Virus record (IMG/VR): IMGVR_UViG_3300031992_000010
From: a virus
Taxonomy: Duplodnaviria; Heunggongvirae; Uroviricota; Caudoviricetes
Strand: one strand, 5' to 3'
DNA: 64,000 nucleotides
Positions 24,616 to 59,873 of this stretch are shown here, in pieces (within the stretch, counting starts at the first letter, position 1; every line of letters starts with the position of its first letter). A model generated the notes under the pieces. It saw nothing but the letters and a program-made list of their open reading frames with translations. It made no database searches and was not told where the DNA came from. Position numbers and translations under genes: made by a program.

Positions 24616-24620
24616 CACAT

Positions 24621-36239: not shown

Positions 36240-36635
36240 GTGGAGCATATATATGAATATTTAATAGGCGGGAGGAAAATGGGACGGAAAAAATCCGCTG
36301 AAACATTCGGTGAGATTGAAAAGGGTTCCGCCATATATGTTTATACCTTCGATGGTAGTTGGGGTAATTTGAACAAATCCGAAGGTGTAATTACCAAAAT
36401 AAATTTATTACATAACGCCGCCAAACAATTTGAGTCCGAATTATCGGATGGGATAATTGATTCACCCACACCGAAAAAGTTCGATTTCTCAATGTATGAA
36501 ACGATGTTTAATAAAGATATTTATGTAATGAGTCAATATCAACGATGGTATAAATATATAGTTGTATCATTATGTAAATTGAATGTGGATAATGCCATTG
36601 AAAATAAAAGAAAATACGGGGGTATTTCCCAATAG
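36240..36635 (+). CDS. YLIGG-leader protein (small beta-barrel family)
   Basis: GTG start, (M)EHIYEYLIGGRK, TFGEIEKGSAIYVY domain shared with the 58-59.9 kb array. Confidence 0.7.
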   Translation: MEHIYEYLIGGRKMGRKKSAETFGEIEKGSAIYVYTFDGSWGNLNKSEGVITKINLLHNAAKQFESELSDGIIDSPTPKKFDFSMYETMFNKDIYVMSQYQRWYKYIVVSLCKLNVDNAIENKRKYGGISQ

Positions 36636-36638
36636 AAT

Positions 36639-36667
36639 TAAATTTTTATAAAAAACCTAATATATTA
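36639..36667 (+). promoter_or_regulatory. bipartite motif
   Basis: TAAATTTTT-ATAAAAAACCTA-ATATATTA. Confidence 0.6.
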
Positions 36668-36686
36668 ATAAAAAAAAACAATTGGA

Positions 36687-37430
36687 ATGAGACATTTAAC
36701 GGAGTCAATAAAAGGCAATTGGAAACCAACACTTTCCCAACCTATAAATCCAAAGGGATTATATTTATTTTGGCGGGCAAAAATCGATACTGATAATGGT
36801 ATTGAATGGGAAAGCGGCTATGCGAAGGATTATATAGTGGTTAATGGGTGGACACAAAAATACCTGCCTTCGATTACGTTACTTAAAACAAAACTTACCA
36901 ACGAGTTCCAAAAGAATCATTATACGGAAATAAATAACCTCGTTATTCAATCACATCCAAACTTTAACAATATCGATATTCAATTTATCCCGGTATTTGG
37001 ATATGAAATACACAACAATAAAGGTTATGAGGTTACATACAATAAATGTTTTGGTACCAAAAAAGGTGCGGTCAATTTGATCGGATTCGATTGGTCCGGG
37101 TATAAAAAATTGGAGGCAAAAGGATTCGAGGACGAGGCGGAGGATGCCGAACGTAAGCGTGAGGAGAAATACCAACGTGAAATGGAGGAAAAGACCAAAA
37201 ATGAACGTGAGCGTAAGGAAATGGAGGAACGCCGGGAACTTGAAAAGTCCTACACCGACGCCGGTTGTATGAACGGATGGAGTGATACCTACCCGGATGA
37301 AAAAACGAAGGAACTTGTCCGCAAGGCACAAAATGGGAATGCATATTTTGTCCGTAGTTTAGGCCGCGGATATAATGAATATGTTTCCGATAAGTATAAG
37401 GTTATTTGGAGAGTTGATTCAACGGATTAA
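36687..37430 (+). CDS. hypothetical protein, leader MRHLTESI
   Basis: 247 aa ORF with charged coiled coil. Confidence 0.7.
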   Translation: MRHLTESIKGNWKPTLSQPINPKGLYLFWRAKIDTDNGIEWESGYAKDYIVVNGWTQKYLPSITLLKTKLTNEFQKNHYTEINNLVIQSHPNFNNIDIQFIPVFGYEIHNNKGYEVTYNKCFGTKKGAVNLIGFDWSGYKKLEAKGFEDEAEDAERKREEKYQREMEEKTKNERERKEMEERRELEKSYTDAGCMNGWSDTYPDEKTKELVRKAQNGNAYFVRSLGRGYNEYVSDKYKVIWRVDSTD

Positions 37431-37440
37431 TTAATATATT

Positions 37441-38442
37441 ATGAAACTTGACGATAGATTAAAGGAATTGGATGGCCAATGGTCGGTGACACGGCTCATA
37501 ACACCTATAAATATACAGGACTCGTATGAGGATCGTATGCTTGTAAATTGGGTACCCCAATATAAGGAGGTTGAGTTCGATAGATTATTGGATGCCTATA
37601 ATGAGGTGTTGGAAAACATCGACTCATATGAATTTGATGAAAAATTGAGGATACATTATGTGGCAAAAATAAACGAATGCCTTGAATACCTTACCGCATT
37701 TAAGGACCGCGACCCGATGGCGATAACAAATATCCACGGAATTACCGATCTTGGGTTTCTATTAAAACATAAAAAACGGTTGGATGAAATTTGTGAACAA
37801 ACCATAAATTATACATATCCGACAAATACATATGCACCGGAATATGCGACCGGTTACCTTCAATCGGTTCTTGACCAACGCCACCTGCCATATAGTTGTG
37901 AAACACGTGATATAATAGCAAAGGTTACGGTACAGCATAGTACCAATAAGGTGTATATAAATGGTTCCGCAACGTATGGACGTAATGAACTCCGCCGTCT
38001 TACGGAACACGAAATAGGTACACATATAGTACGTGCCATGGCCGGGAGTGAAAAGGGGTACCTATTCAAAAAAGGTTTTGCCAAGTATATCGAGTTGGAG
38101 GAGGGTCTTGCCATTTATAGTGAGGTGGCGGCGGGCTATCCGGAGGGGTTGGTTAGAACATACCTACGATTGGTTGCCACAAACCTTTGTATGGAAAACA
38201 CGTTCGAGGATATGTATAAAAAAATGTGTGACCAATTCCCAAATATTGACAAACAGCAAATTTACGATATATGTTTCCGTATAAAACGAGGTCTTGCCAA
38301 TTTCAATGACTTTGGGGGATATACGAAGGATCGGCTTTACATTACCGGATACCTCAAACTTTGCGATATGACAAGGAGTAAACGTAAAATAGAGAAAATC
38401 CGATTGGATGGAAAGACAAATTTTGATTATTATAAAAAATAA
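37441..38442 (+). CDS. DUF1704 / MATCAP-like metallocarboxypeptidase, second copy
   Basis: EHEIGTH, EEGLA, TKDRLYITGY. Confidence 0.8.
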   Translation: MKLDDRLKELDGQWSVTRLITPINIQDSYEDRMLVNWVPQYKEVEFDRLLDAYNEVLENIDSYEFDEKLRIHYVAKINECLEYLTAFKDRDPMAITNIHGITDLGFLLKHKKRLDEICEQTINYTYPTNTYAPEYATGYLQSVLDQRHLPYSCETRDIIAKVTVQHSTNKVYINGSATYGRNELRRLTEHEIGTHIVRAMAGSEKGYLFKKGFAKYIELEEGLAIYSEVAAGYPEGLVRTYLRLVATNLCMENTFEDMYKKMCDQFPNIDKQQIYDICFRIKRGLANFNDFGGYTKDRLYITGYLKLCDMTRSKRKIEKIRLDGKTNFDYYKK

Positions 38443-38445
38443 ACC

Positions 38446-38652
38446 GTGAGAACAAAATTCGAATTAAACGAGGTGGAGAAAAAACGGGCGGAGAAGTTTA
38501 TAAAAAAACATCTCCATCCGGAAACAAACCACGGCGCCATTGGCGGCCATATCTCATACACATTTATTCCAACCGGAATAGGCAATGCCGTTACAATAAA
38601 ATGTGGCGATTGTGATAAGGAGGAAAATATAACCGACTACGATTGTTGGTAA
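38446..38652 (+). CDS. small hypothetical protein (CxxC)
   Basis: GTG start, CGDC. Confidence 0.55.
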   Translation: MRTKFELNEVEKKRAEKFIKKHLHPETNHGAIGGHISYTFIPTGIGNAVTIKCGDCDKEENITDYDCW

Positions 38653-38847
38653 AAAACGTTAGGAAATATACCCTAACGTTTATTATATAAATATAGGAAC
38701 ATTTCAACGCCCGCCGCGAAAGGCCCCTAACACGGTGTGATGTTTTTTGAATGGACCGCCGTAAATTTAATTTTTTGGAAATGTTTTCTTGTAAAAGGTT
38801 GGAAAAACTTCCAACCTTTTTTATTTTATATAAAATATATATTCAAT

Positions 38848-39486
38848 ATGCCCGGAAAAGTAAAACGTAAGCCATCGATGATTTTGACACCAAGTGAGAA
38901 AACCAAAAACTTCAACCTATACGAGGACATCAAAAAATCCCCGTTATATAAGAAGCCGGTCACCAAACGCGATGACATCGCACGTGATTTCCTTGAAAAG
39001 GCCGCCGACCGGATTAAGCCGGGCTCAAGGATTGTTCCGGGTCAATTACTTATGTTTCAATACTTCAATCCAAAAACAAAGGAGGAACTTGAATATTATG
39101 ATGCCGCACCGGTAACCATTTTCTTCGGTATATACACGGCAAAGGAGGGCAAACGTATAATTGGATTCAATATCCACTATATACCGCCACGTACCCGCTG
39201 GCGTGTTATGGATGCAATCTTTAGATTATATCGGCCAATATTCCTCAAATATTTTGATTCGGGTATTTATAAGGAAATTGACGCCTTTGATTATCAATAT
39301 CTTATGGAGGAACTTGAAAGGGCAAAATTAAAATTTTGCGTCCGCCAATATGACCCACAGCGTATGGCAAACGTATTCAATATCCAGCCACAATGTTATA
39401 CGGCGGCCTGTTATACGGAGGGATGGTTTAAGAAACAAACGCGTCAGCAAATTTTAAACCATTGGTCGAAATTGAAAATGAAATAG
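38848..39486 (+). CDS. DNA end-protector protein gp2-like
   Basis: GQLLMFQY.NPKTKEELEYYD..P and GFNIHYIPP; start moved to MPGKVK. Confidence 0.75.
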   Translation: MPGKVKRKPSMILTPSEKTKNFNLYEDIKKSPLYKKPVTKRDDIARDFLEKAADRIKPGSRIVPGQLLMFQYFNPKTKEELEYYDAAPVTIFFGIYTAKEGKRIIGFNIHYIPPRTRWRVMDAIFRLYRPIFLKYFDSGIYKEIDAFDYQYLMEELERAKLKFCVRQYDPQRMANVFNIQPQCYTAACYTEGWFKKQTRQQILNHWSKLKMK

Positions 39487-39516
39487 ACAAAATTTATTAT
39501 ATAAAAAAATATTTTT

Positions 39517-40122
39517 ATGGAACATTTATTTGAGTATTTAATAGGTGGAAAAAAGATGGAGAAATCAAAATATAATTATTTCCCAAAGAATGTCGAGGAA
39601 CTAAAAACCTTGATTAAGGAATTGATTAAGGAGAGGGGGAATAATGCCGATCTAAATGATATTGACACCAGTGAAATCACAAATATGTACGCATTATTCA
39701 AGGGTATGGATAAATTCAATGGTGACATATCCCGTTGGGATACCGGTAAGGTAACCAATATGAGTTATATATTTAGTGGGGCAAGTAGTTTTAACCAGGA
39801 CATATCAAAGTGGAATACTGGTAATGTGGAAAGTATGAGTAATATGTTTATGGCAGCAAGTAGTTTTAACCAGGACATATCAAAGTGGAATACTGGTAAT
39901 GTGGAAAGTATGAGTTATATGTTCTGTGGGGCAAGTAGTTTTAACCAGGACATATCAAAGTGGAATACTGGCAGGGTAGTCAATATGCGTTATATGTTCT
40001 ACGATGCCAAGAATTTTGATCGGGATATTTCAAAATGGAATATAAGTAAGGTAATCAATACGAAATCAATGTTTGAGGGATGCCCAATAAAGGAGAAAAA
40101 TAAACCTACATTTAAACGATGA
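39517..40122 (+). CDS. YLIGG-leader BspA/DUF285 repeat protein
   Basis: MEHLFEYLIGG; 25-aa FNQDISKWNTGNVESMS.MF repeats. Confidence 0.85.
   Translation: MEHLFEYLIGGKKMEKSKYNYFPKNVEELKTLIKELIKERGNNADLNDIDTSEITNMYALFKGMDKFNGDISRWDTGKVTNMSYIFSGASSFNQDISKWNTGNVESMSNMFMAASSFNQDISKWNTGNVESMSYMFCGASSFNQDISKWNTGRVVNMRYMFYDAKNFDRDISKWNISKVINTKSMFEGCPIKEKNKPTFKR
39781..39971 (+). repeat. 75-nt period coding tandem repeat
   Basis: 41-nt identical core at 39781, 39856 and 39931. Confidence 0.9.
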
Positions 40123-40970
40123 AACAGTTATATGAATATTTAATAGGTGGATCCAAAAAGGGTCGGGCATCGGGTTATAAATTTCACCCCCAAACAAAGG
40201 AGGAGTTAAGCGATCTTTTAGAGGAACTTATAAAGGAACGCGGAATGGAAGGTGATTATAATGATATCGATACCTCACAAATTGAGGATATGACAAATCT
40301 TTTTGCAACAATGGATTTATCCGGGTTTAACGGCGATATTTCGAAATGGAATACCTCAAAGGTAAAATCAATGCACGGTATATTTTCCGGCTGTGAAAAA
40401 TTTAATTGTGATATATCCGATTGGGATGTATCAGGGGTTGAGGATTTTGATACCATGTTTTGGGGTTGTAATAAATTCAATCAGCCGATAGGACGGTGGG
40501 ATACCTCGAGGGCAAAAAAAATGCACGGTATGTTTTGGAACTGCACCAAATTTGATCAGGATTTATCACATTGGGATGTTTCAATTGTTGAGGATATGTC
40601 AAATATGTTTTACAATGCCATAAATTTCGGTAAAACCGGTGGTAATATAACCAATTGGGATGTAAGTAAGGTGACCAATATGACCGAAATGTTCAAAATG
40701 GCCTACAAATTCAATCAGGACCTGAATTGGGATTTAAAATCGTGTAAAAGCACGTCTATGATGTTCCAATCGGCGAAAGGATTTAATGGTGACATTTCAA
40801 AATGGAAGAATACCCTACACATTAAAACTATGGAGAGAATGTTTTATGATGCGAAATCATTTTATCAGGATTTATCCGGATGGAAAATACAGGATAAGGC
40901 ACCAAAAAGTGAAATGTTTGGAAAAACACCAATGGAATTTGAGAAAAATATGCAGCCTCAACGGGTATAA
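40119..40970 (+). CDS. YLIGG-leader BspA/DUF285 repeat protein
   Basis: MKQLYEYLIGG; FN.DIS.WD.S.V..M..MF repeats. Confidence 0.85.
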   Translation: MKQLYEYLIGGSKKGRASGYKFHPQTKEELSDLLEELIKERGMEGDYNDIDTSQIEDMTNLFATMDLSGFNGDISKWNTSKVKSMHGIFSGCEKFNCDISDWDVSGVEDFDTMFWGCNKFNQPIGRWDTSRAKKMHGMFWNCTKFDQDLSHWDVSIVEDMSNMFYNAINFGKTGGNITNWDVSKVTNMTEMFKMAYKFNQDLNWDLKSCKSTSMMFQSAKGFNGDISKWKNTLHIKTMERMFYDAKSFYQDLSGWKIQDKAPKSEMFGKTPMEFEKNMQPQRV

Positions 40971-41089
40971 TGAAATAATGACCAAAAAGTACCGTTATTT
41001 TTCATTTTAACGCGGATTTAAAAGGAGATTTGGTAATTTGTATATAAATCTACATAAAAACCAAAATCTCCTTTTATATTTAATATAAA

Positions 41090-44056
41090 TTATATTTTAT
41101 GGAATGCGTGTGTAAGTGTGGATGAATTTATTACCTTTCCATCCAATGAATAATCCAATTTTATCGAATAATACCCACGAGGCAGGGGTGTACCTTTTTC
41201 GACGTGGTCGCCTATTGTATAAATTATTGGCTGATTTACCGGCAAATCATCCTCGATATATTCATCCAATGTATCGAATGTCATATCATCCACGACATAA
41301 TGCTTTGGTTTGAATGAAATGGTTTTCCCGGTACTTTCGTTTACAAATGTCCACGTTGCGGTTATATCCTTGTTTTTTAATGTCATTGGGATATTTGGCA
41401 CGGCAACGACCAATTCATTATCCGACACCTCCATTTTACCCTCCAATTTTTCCAGCGTATGGAATATTGGGAAAATTCTATATTCGGAGATATAAAAACC
41501 ATCCTTTTCCTTTCCGATTGGCGTGCCTTGGGGGGTTACCGGGACGATTTCAATCCGACCGGTATCCAATTCGCCGGAGGATGTTATGTTTTGGATGTAT
41601 AAATCCTCATCCATTAGATTGAATACACTTTTTGAAGGTGAATATAATAATTTAAAATGAAGTTTTATATCATTCGTTTTATAAAGGTTTAGCGTTGGTT
41701 GTAGGTTTATTGTGGCCTTGCCGGATTCATCCAACTCAACCGGTATGGTTCTTGACTTTCCTACCACGGAACATTCAACACCCACCCATTCGATACCAAT
41801 ACCTTCCACCGAAAATTCCAACAGGTATGGGTCGGCCTGAATGACCGATATATGTGCGGTTTCACCGGTTTGTTTGATGAATATTTCATTATTATAATAT
41901 GGGATAAAACCTACATCGTTTTTAAACGTTGGATTCACCGCAATTAAATAATGGGCGGGAGGTGTACAACAATCCTCATATTCATCCACCTTATAACCGG
42001 AATTTATAAGTATTGATTTTAATTCCGGAATGGAGGCCATACGTCCATTTACATTCACATATTCAATCTCATCCGTATTAATTTTAATCATATGGTTTAC
42101 ACCAAATGAGTTACGTAACGGATTTGTGGTATATGGAAGGAATTGTGAATATTTGGATAATTCCATCGTTCCCCCTGTTCCGTAACGGTTTGATTTATCC
42201 TGTTGGGAATAAACGAAGTTATTGAATGTGAATATGCCATAAAGTTCGTTTGTATCCGTATTGGCAAGTATATTGTTTTCAATACGTTTAACCTTATATA
42301 GCTCAATAGGCTGCCAGGAATCATCCACAATGTTTAACATCAACCGTTTGATTAGCATTTCACCTCCATTGGTGAAGAATACAAAACGTAATTGATGTGG
42401 ACCCGGTGTTTTAATTAATATCGTTGCCGATATATTTATATCGCCTGTTTCCGAAGGGGTATATATATTATAATTATCAACCGGCTCCTTCGAATCATTA
42501 TCATACAATAATGTATGGATGACCATACGTTGGGAATCCTTGTTTGATATGGTAAAATTGATTGGAACCACGGCACCTATGCCACCAAACATATTTGCCA
42601 CGTACGTTTTTACATCGGCCTTTTTACCCGGTGTCAAATCAATACCAATAACATCGATATTTTCATCCTCGCCATATTTATCCCAATTACCCCCATCATA
42701 TTGATGTGAAAAAGGCGTATCCGGATAGGTATATGCAATAACATCCTGTAACCTATATATTGAATTATCCAACACATCACAATAAACACCGGTTGTTTGG
42801 TCGATGGTGTCTATGCGGGAAAGGTCGCAGGCGTGGAGAACCTTCAACGCGTTGGTATATACCTTATTTTCCAGGGCGGCGTGGATGAGGTCGAGGTGTA
42901 TTGGCATAAAATATGTCTCATAATAACGACCCAAAAGGGCCATCTTTAAGGCAAGGTCGCGGAATCCCCACATAAATGAAACCTTTTCAAGTTTTGGGTT
43001 TTGTTCATCAATAATATGAACACCCGGACGTCTTATTCTATGGAACCAGGCACCGGAGGTTTCACCTCCCTCATATTCATTTTCGTCACTAATATAATTA
43101 TATCGGTTTGTATTTTCATAACCGCCTATTTGCAACACACGGTGTTCGGGTGCGGTCTCATTATTAAGGGCACCGTTTGTAAACGCCGAATGAGGTGCAT
43201 TCTCCCCGCCTTCCAAATATGCCTCGTTTGCATTAAAATGGTCCTCATATTCAATATCACCATCCTCAATCTTTAGTTTATCCAAGGCGGCAAAGAGGCC
43301 TATATATGTGGTTTTAATATAATTTTTCAATTCGGTTTGGATTTCCTTTCCGGTGACACCCATTAAATCGAATGCCCTATACCAATCCTTGTCGTAATTT
43401 ACATATTTCCAATATTCCTGCAAATAAACGAGGTCACCCCACTCAAACCATTCCAATGAATTTATGAGCGAGTTGTAGGAACCTTTGTTGGCGATTATGT
43501 TTATATATTCCAATAATAATTCCTTCCATTTACGGTTCATAAGGATATTATCTATCGCAGGCTCCTTGACATTGCTTTCATATATGGCACGTTGGACGTA
43601 TGCGGGAATTTCCACACCGAAGTTTTTAAGGTTATCCAATAACCGTTCGTCCTCGATATAAAAATCGGCACCAATGGAATACGATTCGCCATTAATGTTT
43701 ACTGTTCCAATAAATTCACCGGCATCCGCGGACGAGGCAATAATATAAATCATATGGACGTAACCCATACCTTCATAGTCATAACCTGTTGAGGTTAATT
43801 TGTTGGTCCTCAATGTGTCGAGGTCGAGTTCCTTGCGGGTGTTGTTTATGTTTATTTTGGATACATCCAATAACATAAACACCGGAAGGTCCTCGTCCGG
43901 GATATTAACCTTTACATTTTGTTTCCTGGTGATAAAACAAATTTGTTTAACGTATTGAATGTTAACACTTTGCCCCTCATCAAACCAAAATACATAGGGG
44001 CGGCTTCCATCAAAAACGTTACTTGAATTAATATCTATAAACTTCAACTTTGCCAT
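41090..44056 (-). CDS. baseplate wedge subunit (gp7-like, tentative)
   Basis: Follows gp6-like gene; NKGSY...L.WF motif. Confidence 0.55.
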   Translation of the reverse strand: MAKLKFIDINSSNVFDGSRPYVFWFDEGQSVNIQYVKQICFITRKQNVKVNIPDEDLPVFMLLDVSKININNTRKELDLDTLRTNKLTSTGYDYEGMGYVHMIYIIASSADAGEFIGTVNINGESYSIGADFYIEDERLLDNLKNFGVEIPAYVQRAIYESNVKEPAIDNILMNRKWKELLLEYINIIANKGSYNSLINSLEWFEWGDLVYLQEYWKYVNYDKDWYRAFDLMGVTGKEIQTELKNYIKTTYIGLFAALDKLKIEDGDIEYEDHFNANEAYLEGGENAPHSAFTNGALNNETAPEHRVLQIGGYENTNRYNYISDENEYEGGETSGAWFHRIRRPGVHIIDEQNPKLEKVSFMWGFRDLALKMALLGRYYETYFMPIHLDLIHAALENKVYTNALKVLHACDLSRIDTIDQTTGVYCDVLDNSIYRLQDVIAYTYPDTPFSHQYDGGNWDKYGEDENIDVIGIDLTPGKKADVKTYVANMFGGIGAVVPINFTISNKDSQRMVIHTLLYDNDSKEPVDNYNIYTPSETGDINISATILIKTPGPHQLRFVFFTNGGEMLIKRLMLNIVDDSWQPIELYKVKRIENNILANTDTNELYGIFTFNNFVYSQQDKSNRYGTGGTMELSKYSQFLPYTTNPLRNSFGVNHMIKINTDEIEYVNVNGRMASIPELKSILINSGYKVDEYEDCCTPPAHYLIAVNPTFKNDVGFIPYYNNEIFIKQTGETAHISVIQADPYLLEFSVEGIGIEWVGVECSVVGKSRTIPVELDESGKATINLQPTLNLYKTNDIKLHFKLLYSPSKSVFNLMDEDLYIQNITSSGELDTGRIEIVPVTPQGTPIGKEKDGFYISEYRIFPIFHTLEKLEGKMEVSDNELVVAVPNIPMTLKNKDITATWTFVNESTGKTISFKPKHYVVDDMTFDTLDEYIEDDLPVNQPIIYTIGDHVEKGTPLPRGYYSIKLDYSLDGKVINSSTLTHAFHKI

Positions 44057-44071
44057 ACGTATAAATAATAA

Positions 44072-45766: not shown

Positions 45767-45772
45767 ATATCG

Positions 45773-46114: not shown

Positions 46115-46116
46115 AA

Positions 46117-49196: not shown

Positions 49197-49291
49197 AAAT
49201 AATTTACATATTATATTATTTTTGTGGGTTCGTGGATTAAATTTCGCGGACCTTTTTTATATTTTAAAACCAAATTATAAAAATCAATATT

Positions 49292-50559: not shown

Positions 50560-50562
50560 TAT

Positions 50563-50591
50563 TAAATTTTTGGATATTCCAAAATATATTA
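50563..50591 (+). promoter_or_regulatory. bipartite motif
   Basis: TAAATTTTT-GGATATTCCAAA-ATATATTA. Confidence 0.7.
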
Positions 50592-50607
50592 TACAAAAAC
50601 TAAACGA

Positions 50608-50979
50608 ATGGATTGTATCTTTTGTAATAAAAATGACGGAGGCGTCATACTCAACACCCGTTTCTTTATTGCCAGGTATGATGAATACCCGGTTTCACCC
50701 GGCCATATCATTATTATACCCAAACGTCACGTGGAGGATTATTTTCTCCTGACACGATATGAACGTGAGGAATTATTCAACGAATGTATTCTACAATGTT
50801 ATCAACTATTGGAGGCAAAATATAAACCGGATGGGTACAATATAGGCATAAACTGCGGCGAGGCCGCAGGTCAAAGTATTATGCATTGTCATATACATAT
50901 TATCCCCCGGTATAAAGGCGATGTGGAAAATCCACGCGGGGGTGTTAGAGGTGTTATTCCATCAAAACAAAATTATTAA
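50608..50979 (+). CDS. HIT family nucleotide hydrolase
   Basis: CIFC, SPGH, HCHIHII. Confidence 0.9.
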   Translation: MDCIFCNKNDGGVILNTRFFIARYDEYPVSPGHIIIIPKRHVEDYFLLTRYEREELFNECILQCYQLLEAKYKPDGYNIGINCGEAAGQSIMHCHIHIIPRYKGDVENPRGGVRGVIPSKQNY

Positions 50980-50983
50980 TATT

Positions 50984-51832: not shown

Positions 51833-52806
51833 AAAAAACCATAGTTTTAAATCTTTTTGCAGGACCAGGTGCGGGGAAATCCACCGGCGCCTGCTATATT
51901 TTTTCACAATTAAAGATGAAAGGTATTGATTGTGAATATGTTAGTGAGTTTGCGAAGGATAAGGTGTGGGAACATAACGAGGAGGTATTAAAATGTCAAT
52001 TTTATATTTCCGGAAAACAATCATATAAAATATCGCGGGTATATGGCAAGGTCGATGTCATTATAACCGATAGCCCCATACTTGTAGGTGCCATATATGG
52101 CGATTATGACAATCCAAAATTGGTTCCCGCCATCGAATATGAATTTAAAAAATATAATAACCTAAACATATTCATCGAACGGGACAAGCCATACAATACC
52201 AACGGACGTATGCAAACGGAGGAGGAGGCGAAGGAAAAGGATGAACAATTGCTGGAACTAATGAAAAAATATGACGTACCTTATTCAACAATAAAAGGCA
52301 ACAAGGATGGTTACGACCTGATTGTGAATGAGTTACTACACATCATCAGTAATGGGAACCAGGAGAAATGTGAAATGAAACCAAAGGAGGACCATTATTT
52401 CACACCGGGAACACCCGGCCGCATAACGTCGGATTTTCTTGAGGCGTTGGGACTTAAATTGATACCGGCCGGAAACGAACGCTGCTACCGAATGGTATTT
52501 AAAGGGGATGATATAAGATACAATTTCAGCCTGACCCGAAACAATTATGACGACAAATGGATTTACTCCGATTACCGTAATAGGATTTTTGGTGTGGAGA
52601 CCATAATGGATTTGGAGGACATACTCCGATTGGCCGGCATTATTGATAAAATTGGCAAGGAAAGATTCCTTAACATTGCAGGCAAATATATTTATGAGGT
52701 GGAGTTTCCAAGCGAGGAGGACATACAACAACTAATCCAATTGCAATCACAACCGGAATGGTTGCAAACCGACAATTCAAAACCTATTTTTATATCAAAT
52801 AAATAA
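51829..52806 (+). CDS. NadR/Ttd14-like (AAA_28) P-loop kinase with extra C-terminal domain
   Basis: NLFAGPGAGKST, SEFAK, ITDSP, GRMQ. Confidence 0.75.
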   Translation: MKKTIVLNLFAGPGAGKSTGACYIFSQLKMKGIDCEYVSEFAKDKVWEHNEEVLKCQFYISGKQSYKISRVYGKVDVIITDSPILVGAIYGDYDNPKLVPAIEYEFKKYNNLNIFIERDKPYNTNGRMQTEEEAKEKDEQLLELMKKYDVPYSTIKGNKDGYDLIVNELLHIISNGNQEKCEMKPKEDHYFTPGTPGRITSDFLEALGLKLIPAGNERCYRMVFKGDDIRYNFSLTRNNYDDKWIYSDYRNRIFGVETIMDLEDILRLAGIIDKIGKERFLNIAGKYIYEVEFPSEEDIQQLIQLQSQPEWLQTDNSKPIFISNK

Positions 52807-53115
52807 TTGGAAAATGGGGAGGTTAAACTAACATTTTGGCAATGGGTGCGTATTTGGTTCAAATTACGCAAGGAATTGAAACAAATGGATGGTCCGGAGG
52901 AACGTCGTATAATGAAGTTCCTTAAAATTGGAATGCGTGCATGGGAGAAGGAGACCCATCCGGTTCCCGGTCCGGAGATAACATCAACGACGTTGGTGGT
53001 ATTGAAAATGTTAAATATCATCGACCGCCCGGTTGAAACTTCGGACGAACGAATCGAAACCGTAAGACAATTATTAAATTTAAACCATACCTTAAATAAA
53101 CGGACAAGAAAATGA
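52807..53115 (+). CDS. hypothetical protein
   Basis: TTG start, operon packing. Confidence 0.5.
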   Translation: MENGEVKLTFWQWVRIWFKLRKELKQMDGPEERRIMKFLKIGMRAWEKETHPVPGPEITSTTLVVLKMLNIIDRPVETSDERIETVRQLLNLNHTLNKRTRK

Positions 53116-55028
53116 AAAATAAGGGGATTTTATTTATATTTTTATTACTTATAATTCTATTCCTCGTCAATATTTTTGAGGCGAGCGGGCAAACTATTAC
53201 CGATTATGAAAATATGTCGGTTTTAAAGGATTTTTATTATTGTAATTCGGACGAAAGTTATTATGCATATGTTTCCAGCAGTCAATACAATTCCGGGGCA
53301 TTTAAGATTAATGGGGGATCAACTTATAATGAAGGTGAAAATGTCAATAAAAGGGATTATGACCAAAAATATACAATAAGTGCCAATAAAACAGGTTATT
53401 TAAAAATTAATGGCACAACATTATCATTTATTGATAATGCAGGTTGCCCTATTTCTTATTTGGATTTTATTGCCAATAATGTTATGACTATCCCCCCAAA
53501 TATCACGGTCAATATACCTCCAAATGCCGAGGTTGCATTGTCTAATATAATTTTTCAGGGGGAAAGTGGGATTAATTATGGTAGACTTATAAATAATGGT
53601 CATTTAGAAATAACCGAAAGTTTTAATTTTTTAAATGGGACATTTGAAAATAATGGCATACTCGATTTTTATGGGGATGTGAATTTTATATGCCCATACT
53701 CTTATTGTAATGGTGAACAGGCACATCCTTGGCATTTTATAAATAAGGCACATGGATATATATTTTTGAATGGTGATAAGAATTTTCAACATCATTTTAA
53801 TGTTGGAAACCCTACCTGTGGTCAAATATCTTTTGGACCAAATGATTATAATCTTTTGTATTTTGAAGAAGGTAGCTCCTTGGAATCAAATTATTATGAT
53901 ATATCCATAAATACAAATAATGGAGAAACAAATTTACAAACATTTACGGTTAAAAACGGTGATGTGGAAATTCATATAGATTCTAATGCTGGTGTCGAGG
54001 CTGAAACACTTATAGTTGATGGGACAATAACATTTAGTGGAGGCCAATATCAAAGTGTTAATATTGAAAAATTTGGAATGTTTGATTTTGTAAATAATAG
54101 TAGTGCGAGTCAATATTTGAATATAAATGCTGCTGAAGGAGCTAATATTTTTGTAAAACAAATAACATATGGAACACCAATATTTACCATAAAAAATAAA
54201 GCTTCTATGACATTATGTCAAAATCCAACAAAAGGAGTTGCTGATTGGGAGAACAGCAATCTCGCCACTCTTGAAGCTGGTGGAACATTTAATTACATAA
54301 TAGATGAATATACTATAAATGGTAAGGAATACAATCCAACAAATAAAAAATTATTTAGTTCATTAGATGGTGAGGGTGATATTAATACACCGGATAATAT
54401 AACAATAGAATTACAAAGATATGGAAAAACGATAGATGAAAATAGCGGTATAAGAATAACAAGTTTTGTGCAATTTATAAGATATATTATTAGTTTATTA
54501 TCAACAAGAGATGGGCAAAAAGTATATTTAAATGGTGCATTTACCGATATGGAGGAATGTGAAGATACGTATAATAACCATAAATCGGAAATACTCCCAA
54601 TCGAACTAACCTATTTCAAAATCACCGACGGCAACTTCGAATGGGAAACAAAAAGTGAAACGAATAATGATTACTTTATAATCGAATATTCGAAGAACGG
54701 GACCGATTGGACGGAATGCACCGACCATATCCAATCCCAATCAAATACCGGTTGGATATATTCCTACCCGGTACCGGAAACAACCAAGGGATCGGTGTTC
54801 TCATACTACCGGCTTAAACAGGTGGACCTCGATGGTACATTCTCATATTCCGACATACTTTCGACATCGTGGAAGGTTCCTACACCTCCACAGCCAAAGG
54901 CCGGATATACGAAGGCATTTATCGGTATTGATGGTAAAATTATATATGATAACTATAACCAATTACCATCCGGTGTGTATATTGAAAAGTCCGAAAATGG
55001 AACACGGCGAATTGTGAAACTAAAATAA
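53112..55028 (+). CDS. secreted Bacteroidota-type protein with LPIEL Ig-like module and T9SS CTD-like tail
   Basis: Signal peptide; LPIELTYF, W.T.SE.NNDYF.IE.S.NG, YYRLKQVD.DG; tail LPSGVYI...IVK. Confidence 0.7.
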   Translation: MKNKGILFIFLLLIILFLVNIFEASGQTITDYENMSVLKDFYYCNSDESYYAYVSSSQYNSGAFKINGGSTYNEGENVNKRDYDQKYTISANKTGYLKINGTTLSFIDNAGCPISYLDFIANNVMTIPPNITVNIPPNAEVALSNIIFQGESGINYGRLINNGHLEITESFNFLNGTFENNGILDFYGDVNFICPYSYCNGEQAHPWHFINKAHGYIFLNGDKNFQHHFNVGNPTCGQISFGPNDYNLLYFEEGSSLESNYYDISINTNNGETNLQTFTVKNGDVEIHIDSNAGVEAETLIVDGTITFSGGQYQSVNIEKFGMFDFVNNSSASQYLNINAAEGANIFVKQITYGTPIFTIKNKASMTLCQNPTKGVADWENSNLATLEAGGTFNYIIDEYTINGKEYNPTNKKLFSSLDGEGDINTPDNITIELQRYGKTIDENSGIRITSFVQFIRYIISLLSTRDGQKVYLNGAFTDMEECEDTYNNHKSEILPIELTYFKITDGNFEWETKSETNNDYFIIEYSKNGTDWTECTDHIQSQSNTGWIYSYPVPETTKGSVFSYYRLKQVDLDGTFSYSDILSTSWKVPTPPQPKAGYTKAFIGIDGKIIYDNYNQLPSGVYIEKSENGTRRIVKLK

Positions 55029-55037
55029 TTATATATA

Positions 55038-55133
55038 ATGGATACAATATGCGGTATTTTATTGGCCGCAACCGCGATTATGCTTGTGGTCGTGGTGTGC
55101 GTCGGCTACGATGGAGATGATGAAGTAAAGTAA
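55038..55133 (+). CDS. 31-aa hydrophobic microprotein
   Basis: MDTICGILLAATAIMLVVVVCVGYDGDDEVK; fills intergenic gap. Confidence 0.45.
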   Translation: MDTICGILLAATAIMLVVVVCVGYDGDDEVK

Positions 55134-55160
55134 TCACCTCCATTTTTTTATCCATATTGT

Positions 55161-55189
55161 TAAATTTTTCCCGGATTCTTTATATATTA
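55161..55189 (+). promoter_or_regulatory. bipartite motif
   Basis: TAAATTTTT-CCCGGATTCTTT-ATATATTA. Confidence 0.7.
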
Positions 55190-55229
55190 ATATGTAAGTT
55201 AAATTTAAAGGATATAGGAGGATAAGGAT

Positions 55230-55502
55230 ATGACACAGGATCAGGCATTAAATACATTAAAAAAATATGTAAGGGATGAGGTGGATTCATTTACATCATA
55301 TCCTATAAAAGCAACTTTTCCGGATGTACCTATAAGTGTGAGGGTTGATTACCAGCATATCAATAATGAAAATATATATGGTATTGTATTCTGCACATCC
55401 ACATATGATAGGTGGGGTGAAAGTGAATCGTATGATGTTTGTTTCTGCGATACCGAAGAAACGGCGGATGTTGTATACGGAACAATAAAATACAAAGGGT
55501 AA
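55230..55502 (+). CDS. hypothetical protein
   Basis: Downstream of promoter motif. Confidence 0.65.
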   Translation: MTQDQALNTLKKYVRDEVDSFTSYPIKATFPDVPISVRVDYQHINNENIYGIVFCTSTYDRWGESESYDVCFCDTEETADVVYGTIKYKG

Positions 55503-55542
55503 TCAAAGGATATAAAAATGTAATTTAAATTGATAGGAAATT

Positions 55543-55872
55543 ATGGGTATCAAAAACATAAAATCGGCAATAATAAATCAGGCGAGGAAATATTTATTAA
55601 AGGATCATTCCTCGCCATTAACAAACATCCTGCATCAATGTTCACTACAGGTGGAGATGCAATATCATCGGGATATTGAGACCGCATATCAGGAGGGTGC
55701 CAAGTGGGGAATGGAACAAGGCGATCGGGAACAAAAACGTATGAATGAGGTCATTATCGAATGGCTCGAAACCAACGTAAAGGATTATGTATTCGATTTC
55801 GAAGGTAACCGGGCATTTATTGATATGCCATCATTTATTGAGGATATACGTAAATTTTTGAAAACAAAATAA
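55543..55872 (+). CDS. hypothetical protein
   Basis: AYQEGAKW segment. Confidence 0.6.
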   Translation: MGIKNIKSAIINQARKYLLKDHSSPLTNILHQCSLQVEMQYHRDIETAYQEGAKWGMEQGDREQKRMNEVIIEWLETNVKDYVFDFEGNRAFIDMPSFIEDIRKFLKTK

Positions 55873-55876
55873 GAAT

Positions 55877-56953
55877 ATGAGAAAACGATTTACACAAACC
55901 GAATTGGATAAAATGGTTGAGGGCCATTTTAAGGCACAAATGGAGTGGCAGGACCACGGTGGACCCAAACCTACATTGGACCTGGGGGATGCCGATTTGA
56001 TTGGTGTGCGATTTAATGCATCATTACTCCAAAATATTAACTTCACAAACTCATATTTGAGTGAAGTGGTATTCCCCGACGGGTGTAGATTGGATGAATC
56101 CGATTTTACAAATACAAGTATTGCCGACATCGAATTTATGGACGGAAGTGTATCAAGATGTAAATTTGTTGGAGCCCATATGGTGAGGGTAAAAATCACC
56201 GACACATATTTTTCCGATTCAAATTTTGAACACACGGTCATAAAGGAATGTAATTTTAAAAATTCCACATTTTACGGTGCAAATTTTTATACCTGTGATA
56301 TTGATGGTACAATATTTGAGCGGGCAAATCTAATCCGTGCCGATTTTGAATCGGCAATAATTAGTAACACGTCATTTAAATTGGCATCGGCAAACAGCGC
56401 GATATTCACATCCGGTTCCTTTTATAATGTCGATTTTACCGATTCATATTTGCAACGTGCCCATTTTAATAATGTTTCGATGCAGAGTAGTTGTAAATTT
56501 AAAGGGGCATTATTGGATAATGCAAACTTCCACGAGGCAAAAATCGACATCGAGGACCTCAATAAGGTCAGAATCCCCTATACGGTAAACGGACTGAATA
56601 TGGCCTGTCCGGAGGAGGGTGCATTCGTCGGGTGGAAATATGTGAGAAATAATCGGGATTATTACCTCATAAAACTATTAATCCCGGAGGATGCAAAACG
56701 TAGTTCGGCCACCACACGTAAGTGTCGCTGTGAAAGGGCGTTTGTATTGGATATTGTTGACCTATTTAATGAGGATATACACTTCGAGAAATGTGAAAAT
56801 CCCAACTCAATAACATATACAGGTAGGAAAACCGTATACAAGGTTGGCGAGACGGTATACCCGGATAGTTGGGATGAGGATAGATGGGACGAATGCTCAC
56901 ACGGTATCCACTTCTTTATCACAAAACAGGAGGCGATAAATTACGCACTTTAA
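55877..56953 (+). CDS. pentapeptide-repeat protein with DUF5758-like C-terminus
   Basis: A.F..A.L repeats; CPEEGAF.GWK, KRSSATTRKCRC, ECSHGIHFFIT. Confidence 0.85.
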   Translation: MRKRFTQTELDKMVEGHFKAQMEWQDHGGPKPTLDLGDADLIGVRFNASLLQNINFTNSYLSEVVFPDGCRLDESDFTNTSIADIEFMDGSVSRCKFVGAHMVRVKITDTYFSDSNFEHTVIKECNFKNSTFYGANFYTCDIDGTIFERANLIRADFESAIISNTSFKLASANSAIFTSGSFYNVDFTDSYLQRAHFNNVSMQSSCKFKGALLDNANFHEAKIDIEDLNKVRIPYTVNGLNMACPEEGAFVGWKYVRNNRDYYLIKLLIPEDAKRSSATTRKCRCERAFVLDIVDLFNEDIHFEKCENPNSITYTGRKTVYKVGETVYPDSWDEDRWDECSHGIHFFITKQEAINYAL

Positions 56954-56965
56954 AAAATATATAAT

Positions 56966-57040
56966 ATGTTTTGGATTTGGCTTGGGACATCGGTTATTTT
57001 AACAACATCAATAATAGTAATAACCAATTTAAATAAGTAA
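56966..57040 (+). CDS. 24-aa hydrophobic microprotein
   Basis: MFWIWLGTSVILTTSIIVITNLNK; exactly fills gap. Confidence 0.45.
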   Translation: MFWIWLGTSVILTTSIIVITNLNK

Positions 57041-57042
57041 TT

Positions 57043-57525
57043 ATGACAAAAGGAAAGGCAATACGCCTTATTAAGGAGGCGATCGAAAAACACGGTAAGG
57101 ATTTTACCTTATATGGATTTCGCGACGTATGGAAACACGACCTTGATGAATTGAAGGATGAGATCGGGGGCGGTAGTGGAAGAATATGTTACGATCAGCC
57201 CAAATATATTTGTGGTACATTCACACTTGGCAATCTCCTTGATGAATTAAATAAGGATGATGTCACCTTAACGGATCGGCCACCATTCACTACCGGCGAC
57301 CTGCCTTGTTATCGTCAGGTAATGGGAATGATTGAACGTAATATTGAGGAATTTACCCATATGGCCGCCATAAGAATGTATGTAGGCGAATCCCAAGTCG
57401 AATATGAATCGTATGTAAAGGACCACGCGGAGGAGGTTAAGGGAATCCAACAAAAGCATAAGGATGAATTGGCCGCACTTTTGGGTATGGCAAAACAATT
57501 TAACGTATCACCGCTATATGTATAA
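57043..57525 (+). CDS. hypothetical protein
   Basis: 160 aa ORF. Confidence 0.65.
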   Translation: MTKGKAIRLIKEAIEKHGKDFTLYGFRDVWKHDLDELKDEIGGGSGRICYDQPKYICGTFTLGNLLDELNKDDVTLTDRPPFTTGDLPCYRQVMGMIERNIEEFTHMAAIRMYVGESQVEYESYVKDHAEEVKGIQQKHKDELAALLGMAKQFNVSPLYV

Positions 57526-57790
57526 CAATACCTTACATCTTGTACTCAAACATCGGTGGTACGATATGATTGCCTCCGGTATTAAACGTGAGGAATACCG
57601 GGATATGAAACCGTGTTGGGAAAAACAAATTTGGAACAAACGTGAGGAAATCCGGTACGTAACCTTCCATCGGGGGTACACAAACACCACGATAACAAAG
57701 GCCGTGGAGGATATCGTCGAATCCACGGGACGGACCGAATGGGGTGCCGAGAAAAATAAAAAATATTACACCATAAAATTATTGGATTAG
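57508..57790 (+). CDS. ASCH/PUA-like domain protein
   Basis: L.LK..WYDMI.SGIK.EEYR. Confidence 0.8.
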
Positions 57791-57868
57791 TATCGGATAA
57801 AAAATATACCGTTATTTTCGATTTTTATGCGGTTATTTTCAATTTTCTTCCCAAAATAATATAATTAA

Positions 57869-58025
57869 TCATCTTTTAAAAGATCTCTCCGTAGGGTTGA
57901 GATAAATGGAAAATAAAATGACGGACAAATCGGGTTTTAGGTCGCAAAATAATGGATATCTTGTAACGTGTTTATCCTTTCCAATCTTTTTTACCTCCGA
58001 TTAGATATTCATATGGTTGTCCCAT
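57869..58025 (-). pseudogene. frameshifted, truncated YLIGG-leader paralog
   Basis: MGQPYEYLIGGKK then one extra A gives a stop at 57972; the corrected frame reads IGKDKH...LFCDLKPD. Confidence 0.7.
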
Positions 58026-58029
58026 ATGA

Positions 58030-58389
58030 CTATTTTATTTTATGTTTTATGTCACCAAAATCAATTTCGTGTGTGGAATATGCATTATATGTAAATTTGT
58101 ATTTAGGGAAGGCACCACCACTTGATTTTTGTTTAATTACCATAACGGATTCCTTCGGATGTTTACAATAAATATTCCTTGCATCGTTCCCCTCACCACA
58201 ATATATCGTTACACTATCCTTCTCAATAAATGGCGCATCCGTCACCGGTAGTTCACGTTTATCCAACTCCTCGCCATCGGGTGAGAAGGTATAACAATAT
58301 ATTTTATCGCCTTCGACCAGGCCGTCGAAAGGTAATCCCTTTTTACCTATCTTTTTTCCACCTATTAAATATTCATATAAATTTTCCAT
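58030..58389 (-). CDS. YLIGG-leader array protein
   Basis: MENLYEYLIGGKKIGKK, FDGLVEGDKIY. Confidence 0.8.
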   Translation of the reverse strand: MENLYEYLIGGKKIGKKGLPFDGLVEGDKIYCYTFSPDGEELDKRELPVTDAPFIEKDSVTIYCGEGNDARNIYCKHPKESVMVIKQKSSGGAFPKYKFTYNAYSTHEIDFGDIKHKIK

Positions 58390-58760
58390 TATACCTCAAT
58401 TTTTATATTTTTATTTTCGATATTATCCAATATTTCGTCCAACGTTGTCGCATAATATTCCTTTATTTTTTGGGTATTGGTGCCTTTATAAAATGATTTT
58501 TCCACCGCATCGCCATATTGGATTACCACCAGCCCCTCATCGAATTGTATCAAATAACAAAATTGTTTATATCCGCCTTTTGTGATGGTATCCTTCGCCA
58601 CCGCATATTCAATGATATATTTGTTAATATATCCTCGATCGTTACCCATCTTTACATACTTATATATGGTATCGCCCTTTTTTAATTCGGCGAACTTTTT
58701 TATGATGGATTTTTTACCGATCTTTTTTCCTCCTATTAAATATTCATATAATTGTTCCAT
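58389..58760 (-). CDS. YLIGG-leader array protein
   Basis: MEQLYEYLIGGKKIGKK, FAELKKGDTIY. Confidence 0.8.
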   Translation of the reverse strand: MEQLYEYLIGGKKIGKKSIIKKFAELKKGDTIYKYVKMGNDRGYINKYIIEYAVAKDTITKGGYKQFCYLIQFDEGLVVIQYGDAVEKSFYKGTNTQKIKEYYATTLDEILDNIENKNIKIEV

Positions 58761-58771
58761 TTGGATTATGG

Positions 58772-59134
58772 TTATTTTATTTTGAAATACACCTTAATCT
58801 CATTGATTAAATCCTTTTGATCCCATGGCTCGGTCGTTGCCGCGCAATAGTATGCGCCCGCAATATCGGTTGTCCACATACTTATATACTTATCCATCGG
58901 CCAAGAGGATCGACCACTTCCCCCTTTGGAACCGGTCGAATCAAAATGGATTTTTCCACCTGATCGTTTGATAACCTTATCAATCCTCCGATGATCGGAC
59001 CTTGTCATATTTAATTTTTCATCAAAATTATATATGTAAAATACATCCCCTTCCCGAAGGTCGCCAAACGTGGACGCCTCCTTTTTTTGTCCTATTTTCT
59101 TTCCGCCTATTAGATATTCATATAATTGTTCCAT
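58772..59134 (-). CDS. YLIGG-leader array protein
   Basis: MEQLYEYLIGGKKIG, FGDLREGDVFY. Confidence 0.8.
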   Translation of the reverse strand: MEQLYEYLIGGKKIGQKKEASTFGDLREGDVFYIYNFDEKLNMTRSDHRRIDKVIKRSGGKIHFDSTGSKGGSGRSSWPMDKYISMWTTDIAGAYYCAATTEPWDQKDLINEIKVYFKIK

Positions 59135-59145
59135 TTGAATTATGG

Positions 59146-59505
59146 TTATTTTGTTTTATAACGTGCATTAATCGCATTGGCCAACGCCTTTTGATCCCAC
59201 TGCTCGGTCGTCGCCGCACAATAATTTGCACCCGTCTCATTGGTTTTCCATATACTTATAACATCATCCATTTTCCACGATGATCTACCATTTCCCCCCC
59301 TGCGGGTTGAATCAAAAACGATTCTTCCACCTGATCTTTCGACGACCTTTTCCACCTTCCATTCGTAGGACAATGTCATATTTAATTTTTTATCAAAATT
59401 ATATACGTAAAATACATCCCCCTCCCGAAGATCACCAAATGTGGGGGCCTCCTTTTTTCGCCCTATTTTCTTTCCGCCTATTAGATATTCATATAAATTC
59501 CCCAT
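59146..59505 (-). CDS. YLIGG-leader array protein
   Basis: MGNLYEYLIGGKKIG; close paralog of 58772..59134. Confidence 0.8.
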   Translation of the reverse strand: MGNLYEYLIGGKKIGRKKEAPTFGDLREGDVFYVYNFDKKLNMTLSYEWKVEKVVERSGGRIVFDSTRRGGNGRSSWKMDDVISIWKTNETGANYCAATTEQWDQKALANAINARYKTK

Positions 59506-59873
59506 TATCCAAAATATTTTTTCCTAATTAATTCAACGGCATCATCATCCGGGTATTTCTCCGTGGACATCATACAATACGTTTTTCCACCGTTATCCAC
59601 AACACTCCATATATATTCACTGCCCTCCTTGCTTGGTGTTGGATTACTTTTTTTACCGGTTTCCGCATTAATGGCCGGAAACGATATTGCATTAGGACCG
59701 TTCGAATAATATGGCTCCTCGATTATAAAATCAATAAAATTGGTACGTTTCCAACGAGGATTGAAGTTATATAAATATAAATGGTCACCGGGAACCAACT
59801 CCTTAAATTGCTTCGGTTTGTTTCGCGTACCGGTTTTTCTCCCGCCTATTAAATATTCATATAGGTTCCCCAT
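59505..59873 (-). CDS. YLIGG-leader array protein
   Basis: MGNLYEYLIGGRK, FKELVPGDHLY. Confidence 0.8.
   Translation of the reverse strand: MGNLYEYLIGGRKTGTRNKPKQFKELVPGDHLYLYNFNPRWKRTNFIDFIIEEPYYSNGPNAISFPAINAETGKKSNPTPSKEGSEYIWSVVDNGGKTYCMMSTEKYPDDDAVELIRKKYFG

Follow-up and report, generated by a model that had tools for sequence, protein, structure and literature searches.

Results

The YLIGG tag and the genes that carry it

The stretch of viral DNA analyzed here, hereafter the window, comprises 64,000 nucleotides of the IMG/VR record IMGVR_UViG_3300031992_000010 (Caudoviricetes), and its proteins were placed on a 210,240-base contig by means of protein tables. A short peptide of the form M-x-x-(L/I)-(Y/F)-E-Y-L-I-G-G-(K/R)-K, referred to as the YLIGG tag, heads eight intact open reading frames (ORFs) and one frameshifted remnant in this window and spans residues 1-13 at all nine sites. 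The six-frame translation holds nine copies of the core E-Y-L-I-G-G, each at codons 6-11 behind a start codon, and the degenerate DNA pattern for this core matched nine times in the window, the average over 100 dinucleotide-preserving shuffles being 0.01. The triplet (L/I)-(Y/F)-E is found at residues 4-6 of every intact copy. The eight intact ORFs and one pseudogene with a common leader listed in the original prediction were thus all recovered, and the pattern described for that leader held, while its extent had been underestimated, as K13 and G15 are also nearly invariant and the conserved block is longer than claimed. The tagged genes are listed below, where payload-only HMM denotes a hidden Markov model of 50 relatives from which the tag was removed and AF2 denotes AlphaFold2.

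36240..36635, + strand: YLIGG-tagged small barrel protein, 131 aa, GTG start (payload-only HMM, E 1.7e-13)
39517..40122, + strand: YLIGG-tagged DUF285 repeat protein, 201 aa (Pfam DUF285, E 7.8e-69)
40119..40970, + strand: YLIGG-tagged DUF285 repeat protein, 283 aa (Pfam DUF285, E 3.1e-75), 4-nt overlap with the stop of the 39517 gene
58030..58389, - strand: YLIGG-tagged small barrel protein, 119 aa (payload-only HMM)
58389..58760, - strand: YLIGG-tagged small barrel protein, 123 aa (payload-only HMM)
58772..59134, - strand: YLIGG-tagged small barrel protein, 120 aa (AF2 model and fold search)
59146..59505, - strand: YLIGG-tagged small barrel protein, 119 aa (payload-only HMM)
59505..59873, - strand: YLIGG-tagged small barrel protein, 122 aa (payload-only HMM), 1-nt overlap with the endolysin stop
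57790..58025, - strand: decayed sixth array member, tag intact, cargo frameshifted, stop after 17 codons

The start of the 36240 gene is uncertain, as the product would be nine residues longer if translation began at the in-frame ATG at 36213. At the ninth site (start 58025, - strand) the N-terminus reads MGQPYEYLIGGKK, and because the +1 frame past the stop is identical to the cargo start of the L004:11505-11882 product (L004 being a 204-kb relative), this site is considered a frameshifted and decayed member of the array.

Two cargo families behind one tag

Pfam assigned DUF285 (PF03382) to the 39517 and 40119 genes, with 229 and 250 bits, respectively, against a cut-off of 25, and no family to the other six tagged ORFs. 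The two DUF285 genes are adjacent paralogues, and the payload-only HMM matched 36240 and all five tandem genes and nothing else among the ORFs of the window and of three related loci, which reduces the nine sites to two cargo families, namely an SH3/KOW-like small barrel (six genes and the remnant) and DUF285 repeats (two genes). The earlier description of unrelated payloads on nine genes was therefore overstated, and the idea of a module that moves independently of its payload is supported by the presence of the tag on two folds and weakened by the fact that this amounts, in effect, to one tag transfer only. Besides, tag-weighted profile searches (30 and 40 columns) retrieved 35 clusters at 50% identity, or 44 proteins at 90% clustering, and found the tag only on barrel or DUF285 cargo, which is a weak negative result as tag-only matches on other cargo score near the threshold. 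Two variants came from these searches, one (P0022) with the DUF285-type N-terminal helix and no repeats, and another (P0033, 196 aa) with the barrel, an extra C-terminal domain and a tag that reads M-E-G-I-Y-K-Y-L-I-G-G. The extra domain of P0033, of about 70 residues, resembles a small DNA-binding module of homing endonucleases.

The tag is strongly conserved, as originally stated, when compared to its cargo. Among 50 cluster representatives, pairwise identity was 90% in L-Y-E-Y-L-I-G-G-K-K versus 21% in the cargo, and E-Y-L-I-G-G was invariant in all 50. In 19 of these representatives one residue fewer precedes the Leu, so that the distance to Met1 is not fixed. Residues E6, Y7, L8, I9, G10 and G11 are unchanged in 18 of 18 genes from two phages, in which Gly10 and Gly11 are each encoded by four different codons, Leu8 by four, Ile9 by three, and Tyr7 and Glu6 by two each. 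The upstream DNA showed no conservation, except in one recent tandem duplicate. The tag is a protein-level signal under selection and not a nucleic-acid signal. An alternative in which AGGTGG and an ATG at codon 14 provide a ribosome-binding site and a downstream start was dropped because the start codon is present in two genes only, being absent at seven of the nine sites, and because the upstream frame is conserved as protein.

AF2 models were built with family alignments, one per cargo type. The barrel model (58772..59134) had a mean predicted local distance difference test score (pLDDT) of 86, with residues 1-17 below 50 and residues 21-120 at about 95, and the DUF285 model (39517) had a mean of 88, with residues 1-16 below 50 and the remainder, a repeat solenoid, above 90. 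The tag is thus predicted to be a disordered N-terminal extension outside the fold, on two different folds. The modeled barrel has six strands in an SH3/KOW/Tudor-like arrangement plus a C-terminal helix, and its best structural match was EF-P domain I (Z 7.1, VIA-align), the other matches being generic small barrels. A Foldseek search of the barrel against the PDB returned nothing at E up to 0.001, and in BFVD two uncharacterized phage proteins were matched (E 1.7e-4 and 4.1e-4). Additionally, neither the region nor a barrel protein had a relative among deposited phages when these were searched by megablast and tblastn.

Genomic context of the tagged genes

The tandem array lies behind an endolysin gene and the DUF285 pair behind a gene for a DNA end protector, as follows.

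59873..60445, - strand: Amidase_3 endolysin heading the array (Pfam PF01520, E 1.5e-21; phrog_435, E 2.5e-39)
60453..61082, - strand: DUF6549 membrane protein upstream of the endolysin, hydrophobic N-terminus (phrog_14010; PF20186 in the L004 orthologue)
38848..39486, + strand: gp2-like DNA end protector (phrog_429, E 1.8e-21)

The DUF6549 protein is probably part of the lysis cassette. The junctions from the endolysin through the array are 1-nt overlaps in three cases and 11-nt gaps in two. In L004, ten barrel genes and then one DUF285 gene follow the endolysin, all of them tagged, and the T4 record has a parallel layout in which e, ipIII and ipII are co-oriented and the lysozyme is unrelated. 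The DUF285 pair is co-oriented with the gp2-like gene and starts 30 nt downstream of it; T4 gp2 is head-associated and enters the cell with the DNA end. In two loci of more distant relatives (L050 and L051), the gene just ahead of a tagged gene encodes a gp13-like neck protein, and the genes for the large terminase and Portal_T4 are adjacent. The 36240 gene and an 821-aa tail-region gene have a divergent promoter region in common, with TATATAA located about 70 nt upstream of 36240 (-71).

Two promoter-like classes, mutually exclusive, were recognized in the window. The first, TTAAAT-N15-19-TATAWT, is found with non-structural genes, such as those for the exonuclease and HIT, at a distance of about 46-70 nt on their 5' side, with examples upstream of 335, 9067, 36687 (a TTAAAT-N17-TATATT type site), 47772, 50608, 55230 and 61183. 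The second, TATATAW, lies 9-26 nt before the ATG of baseplate-type genes, of the gp2-like gene and of the 39517 and 2756 genes; examples were found upstream of 11446, 12866, 16232, 28895, 30413, 33691, 38848 (at -21 and -12), 39517 (TATATAA at -19) and 45773, and the element stands at -20 for 2756. The genes of the window have no Shine-Dalgarno sequences, and AATT is often found immediately 5' of the ATG. The count of these motifs suggests late expression for part of the tagged set, and the surroundings of the tagged genes appear late or virion-like, as would fit virion or late functions.

Genome type and prohead protease

Besides the gp2-like gene, the window has gp6-type and gp25-type baseplate wedge genes, and judging from its genes the source is an uncultivated giant phage related to T4. 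It also carries 29 tRNA genes, all on the + strand at 19413-24896, where the G+C content is 0.475 compared to about 0.37. A prohead protease is encoded as follows.

9732..11123, - strand: prohead protease, 463 aa (phrog_207, E 4.7e-37; Pfam S77 and S80)

The assignment of a gp21-type protease to 9732-11123 was confirmed by Pfam, in which both S77 (the T4 gp21 family, 33.4 bits versus a cut-off of 27) and S80 (the phiKZ type, 32.4 versus 23.4) scored above cut-off, and the catalytic-domain motifs GELEHP and SSRAQG were invariant in 38 homologues with identities down to about 50%. In the same 38 homologues the N-terminus follows M-A-K-K-x-(L/I)-(I/L)-(Y/F)-E-T-L-N, with the Glu invariant and T-L-N nearly so, and in the window phage it includes L-L-F-E-T-L-N-E. 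The start of the protease in this clade is very close to the (L/I)-(Y/F)-E-Y-L-I of the tag.

The C-terminal half of the protease contains repeats of K-W-(I/V)-(I/V/M)-E-(E/D/Q)-(Y/F), each with a hydrophobic-x-Glu triplet; in the clade, three to seven copies of the type K-W-(I/V)-(I/V)-E-(E/D/H)-(Y/F) are present per protein, and over 9732-10500 a tandem 12-residue repeat x-K-W-(I/V)-(I/V)-E-(E/D/H)-(Y/F)-x-P-E-(I/V) was observed. Two to seven matches to the repeat core were counted per protease in 60 homologues, with an extra copy in P0182 by alignment, and these repeats may represent a scaffold-like or self-cleaved module. At E up to 1e-5 the protease family numbers 2582 proteins, a large share of which are encoded on contigs with lengths of about 190-245 kb, and tblastn matched 671 deposited phage records, mostly T4-like and annotated as prohead core scaffold or protease. 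The nearest cultured phages by protease are the Tenacibaculum jumbo phages PTm1, PTm5 and pT24 (35-37% identity); no leader in common was found in the first 50 kb of PTm1, and the protease had no meaningful match among PDB sequences.

A looser leader class and other tag-like termini

The same clade also uses a looser leader, M-K-H-(I/L)-x-E-(S/T)-(I/L)-L-N-E, and the window contains several N-termini of this or a similar kind.

29207-29464 and 29475-29759, - strand: two small genes with the N-terminal leader M-(R/K)-H-I-N-E-(T/S)-I-L-(N/Q)-E
36687..37430, + strand: 247-aa gene with the N-terminus M-R-H-L-T-E-S-I, adjoining the 36240 gene
8176..8382, + strand: 68-aa ORF with the N-terminus M-K-H-I-K-T-K-I-N-E
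2756..3583, + strand: amidohydrolase, probable GTG start giving M-T-N-L-Y-E-S-L-I, nine tag residues matched without GG-KK

The GTG start of the 2756 gene is needed because translation from the first ATG would leave out the HxH metal motif. In locus L050 (14599-18900), from a more distant relative, a 476-aa gene with a faint match to sigma-70 region 2 stands ahead of ten small genes in the same orientation, and seven of these begin with M-(K/R)-H-(I/L)-x-E or closely similar residues. The broader pattern M-x(1-2)-(LIVM)-x-E opens 32 of the 168 ORFs in four loci, compared to 6.4 expected from the internal frequency of the pattern.

The looser leader and the YLIGG tag have the same pattern at residues 1-6 and the same position, both head small genes of the array type, and both occur in the same genomes. 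They diverge after residue 6, where the tag continues as Y-L-I-G-G-K-K and the looser leader as S-I-L-N-E-(A/S)-L, so that position 7 is Ser, Thr or Ala in the latter and an invariant Tyr in the former. The looser leader is the more variable of the two and retains a second Glu (L-N-E), whereas the YLIGG form has G-G-K-K in place of N-E. The looser leader bears a resemblance to the propeptides of T4 gp24, gp67 and the internal proteins. Moreover, with I-N-E at positions 4-6 and the second Glu at 10-11, the looser leader is a better match to T4 gp24 than the tag is, and for this reason the YLIGG tag looks like a specialised offshoot of the looser leader in which the first Glu was kept and the second lost. 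A swap of the two tag classes on one cargo family was considered and rejected, as hhalign between the barrel family and a small M-K-H-tagged protein of L051 gave only 31% probability over 33 columns.

Tag-like sequences were also observed elsewhere. A 1091-aa protein at 12866-16141 (- strand; phrog_29329, E 1e-72), beside baseplate-type genes, starts M-A-N-M-T-E-Y-L; this similarity to the first eight tag residues may be due to chance or may mark a further protease substrate. All matches of the back-translated tag pattern in viral_contigs (3 loci) and metagenome_contigs (41 loci), scans from which near relatives may be missing, lay in unrelated proteins, either as M-W-Y-(L/M)-F-E-Y-F-I-G-G inside very long ORFs or as ...LYEYLIGG(D/E)R at the C-terminus of bacterial proteins. 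The latter ending, ...A-D-E-N-M-(D/G)-A-L-Y-E-Y-L-I-G-G-(D/E)-R followed by a stop, occurs in L012, L013, L016 and L019 and in about 20 other metagenome loci of soil-type bacterial origin; it has eight residues in common with the tag and is probably a coincidence. Elsewhere in the window, paralogous MATCAP/DUF1704 metallopeptidase genes (PF08014) are located at 3583-4749 and 37441-38442 (E 3e-15 and 2e-24, respectively), and in L004 a TupA-like ATP-grasp gene and a TOD1/MUCI70 gene are found nearby; with the MATCAP/DUF1704 genes, a peptide ligation and trimming pair could be present.

Discussion

Comparison with known targeting peptides and propeptides

In T4, a capsid-targeting sequence (CTS) is carried by the internal proteins (IPs) IPI, IPII and IPIII and by Alt (Mullaney and Black 1996; for reviews see PMC9026906, PMC3012670), and the internal proteins of T-even phages are diverse and have the CTS alone in common (PMC3012670; PMC9026906). 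Residues 4 and 7 of the T4 CTS are the main ones required for targeting, processing requires residues 8 and 10, and an Asp at position 10 blocks processing and not targeting; T4 propeptides are 10-19 residues long (PMC9026906). The N-termini of the relevant proteins read as follows in the T4 record.

IPII and IPIII: MKTYQEFIAE
IPI: MKTFKEF
gp24: MAKINELLRE
gp67: MEGLIE
gp68: MLLIPE
gp21: L-L-I-E-T at residues 6-10 (LIE-9 in PMC9026906)

The YLIGG tag has M1, E6, aliphatic residues at positions 4 and 8 and an aromatic one at position 7 in common with T4 head-protein N-termini taken together, and only M1, E6, the aromatic 7 and the aliphatic 8 in common with MKT(Y/F)xEF, a comparison that is too short for statistics. 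The resemblance to the T4 CTS extends to other features, since both are short N-terminal peptides common to otherwise dissimilar, fast-evolving small proteins, both genomes encode a gp21-type protease, which in T4 cuts after the Glu of (L/I)-x-E, and the tagged genes lie directly downstream of an endolysin gene as do T4 ipIII and ipII. On the other hand, the conserved block is longer here (13-15 residues) and stricter, its (L/I)-x-E (residues 4-6) has a middle position in the block and not a terminal one, and the cargo is not all basic and comprises two families, one of them made up of repeat proteins of 201-283 aa.

The position of the triplet finds a closer parallel in T4 gp24, gp67 and gp68, in which (L/I)-x-E is likewise at residues 4-6, as in the tag and in the looser leader, and the L-L-I-E-T of T4 gp21 corresponds to the (L/I)(I/L)(Y/F)-E-T of the clade protease. 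These T4 proteins are single-copy structural or core proteins, whereas here the motif heads arrayed accessory genes. Conserved propeptides have also been described for the inner-head paralogues gp53 and gp54 of SPN3US and gp93 of phiKZ (PMC5694885). As in the present case, strongly diverged paralogues have an identical N-terminus with the protease motif, and the protease belongs to the same clan, the window enzyme matching S80; however, those propeptides often exceed 100 residues, have the motif (A/S/G)-x-E and were shown by mass spectrometry.

Capsid targeting as the favored reading

Taking these observations into account, we consider that the YLIGG tag may be a lineage-specific variant of the T4-type capsid-targeting sequence that directs proteins to the head, a reading to which we give a probability of roughly 50%. 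The tag would act as a flexible N-terminal peptide docking newly made proteins onto the prohead core in late infection, and the cargo, consisting of fast-evolving 14-kDa SH3/KOW-like barrels and DUF285 repeat proteins, would end inside the head and enter the next host with the DNA. Along this path the protease encoded at 9732-11123 would cut after Glu6, and the mature protein would retain Y-L-I-G-G-K-K as a basic, flexible tail at its N-terminus. Targeting, cleavage and its position, injection and an anti-defence role of the cargo are all steps that we infer from the comparisons above. Capsid targeting, if correct, explains the position, disorder and conservation of the tag, its likeness to the N-termini of the protease and of T4 proteins, the turnover of the array and the neighborhood of the tagged genes.

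The cleavage step is a more tentative proposal than targeting itself, and we regard a cut after Glu6 as possible and somewhat doubtful. It is plausible because M-x-x-(L/I)-(Y/F)-E fits the (L/I)-x-E rule and copies the N-terminus of the protease. The other options are that the whole tag is kept, giving targeting without processing as in the T4 E10D mutant, or that the cut falls elsewhere. As the second Glu, which aligns with the T4 cut site, was lost, Glu6 may be the only place where the tag is cut, or cutting may not occur.

Several observations weigh against capsid targeting and should be considered together. The likeness to the T4 CTS involves three or four positions, and a Gly is found here where the T4 cut Glu (position 10-11) aligns. 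The best-conserved residues, Y7-K13, lie beyond the proposed cut, a pattern that capsid targeting leaves unexplained, whereas in T4 the conserved tag is removed whole. Besides, Glu6 is replaced by Lys in one family member (P0033), the isoelectric points of the cargo without the tag are mixed (4.7 to 9.0) while T4 IPs are basic, and no late-type promoter element was found for the tandem array itself, which is coupled to the endolysin gene. Finally, the tag occurs on only two cargo families, and shared descent together with one recombination would explain much of its distribution.

Alternative explanations

This last point leads to a reading in which the tag has no role in trafficking and is an inherited paralogue N-terminus, copied once to a DUF285 gene and kept for translation start or stability. 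Consistent with it are the restriction to two cargo families and the fact that codons 2-9 are nearly all A/T in genes without Shine-Dalgarno sequences, yet selection for A/T alone would let F, L, I, Y, N and K interchange, whereas E-Y-L-I-G-G is invariant in 50 of 50 representatives. The use of four Gly and four Leu codons, the retention of the G-rich codons of the GG pair and the persistence of the tag while cargo identity drops to 21% argue in the same direction, and we therefore hold an inherited N-terminus to be quite unlikely. Alternatively, the tag could dock its cargo, as exchangeable small binding modules, to a partner other than the prohead core, such as the neck, the baseplate, the capsid surface or the amidase, in the last case as detachable wall-binding subunits. 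The amidase consists of a catalytic domain only and the array follows it with 1-nt overlaps, the cargo folds are of binding types (an SH3/KOW/Tudor-like barrel and DUF285 repeats), and further copies adjoin tail-region or neck genes. In L050 and L051, however, the tagged gene is not near an endolysin, the fold searches gave no match to known wall-binding SH3b domains (weak evidence), and the likeness of the first six residues to the N-termini of the protease and of head-core proteins would be left unexplained, so that docking to another partner appears unlikely, if the less so of these two.

If the tag were an 11-residue propeptide removed after G-G by a cysteine protease, and not by the prohead serine protease, the invariance of G10-G11 followed by K/R-K, the position of L8 at -4 from the putative cut and the fit of L-I-G-G-K to the L-x-G-G rule of several cysteine proteases would be accounted for. 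Such a peptide would resemble the double-glycine export leaders of bacteriocins, which are likewise short, N-terminal and end in G-G with a hydrophobic residue at -4. Double-glycine leaders have about 15-30 residues, while the tag has 11 residues to G-G (10 in 19 of 50 relatives) and is too short; the hydrophobic spacing is off the consensus (-4, -7, -12, -15), no C39-type peptidase or transporter was found among about 40 window proteins scanned, and the cargo consists of folded proteins of 14-33 kDa of a lytic phage. Removal after G-G is accordingly judged very improbable. A two-part tag, in which residues 1-6 provide targeting and the cut site and Y-L-I-G-G-K-K is a latent N-degron exposed by the cut at Glu6, would retain the capsid-targeting mechanism and is at present a long shot. 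An N-terminal Tyr-Leu-Ile on a flexible, basic, acid-free linker is a near-optimal signal for the ClpS/ClpAP N-end rule pathway, and an N-degron would explain the invariance of Tyr7 in the tag, in contrast to the Ser, Thr or Ala of the looser leader. If it were true, the injected proteins would be self-timed and destroyed soon after acting, or would swamp that protease system.

Novelty and implications

The general idea of loading proteins into a phage head by a short N-terminal peptide is not new, as the mechanism proposed here is that of T4, and our literature search found no description of such tags in metagenomic phages. What the present analysis adds is the reduction of the tagged genes to two cargo families, the demonstration of selection at the protein level, the predicted disorder of the tag, its link to the protease N-terminus, its relation to the looser leader and the endolysin and gp2 contexts in which the tagged genes are found. 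The array itself appears to change rapidly, with five genes and one dead copy here compared to ten in the close relative L004 and a cargo identity of about 21%, and an arms-race locus would be expected to show such fast turnover, as described for the IP genes of T-even phages.

The YLIGG form, in which the first (L/I)-x-E is kept and the T4 cut residue is replaced, could help to separate the parts of the signal that serve targeting from those that serve cutting. Moreover, a 13-residue tag that is tolerated on two folds offers a possible means of packaging foreign proteins in phages of Bacteroidota-type hosts. Overall, if the tag does load the head, it would provide a sequence rule by which the proteins delivered to their hosts by this clade of rumen and gut giant phages could be listed. 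The clade is large and uncultivated, and the delivered proteins would then be the likeliest source of new anti-defence factors within it.

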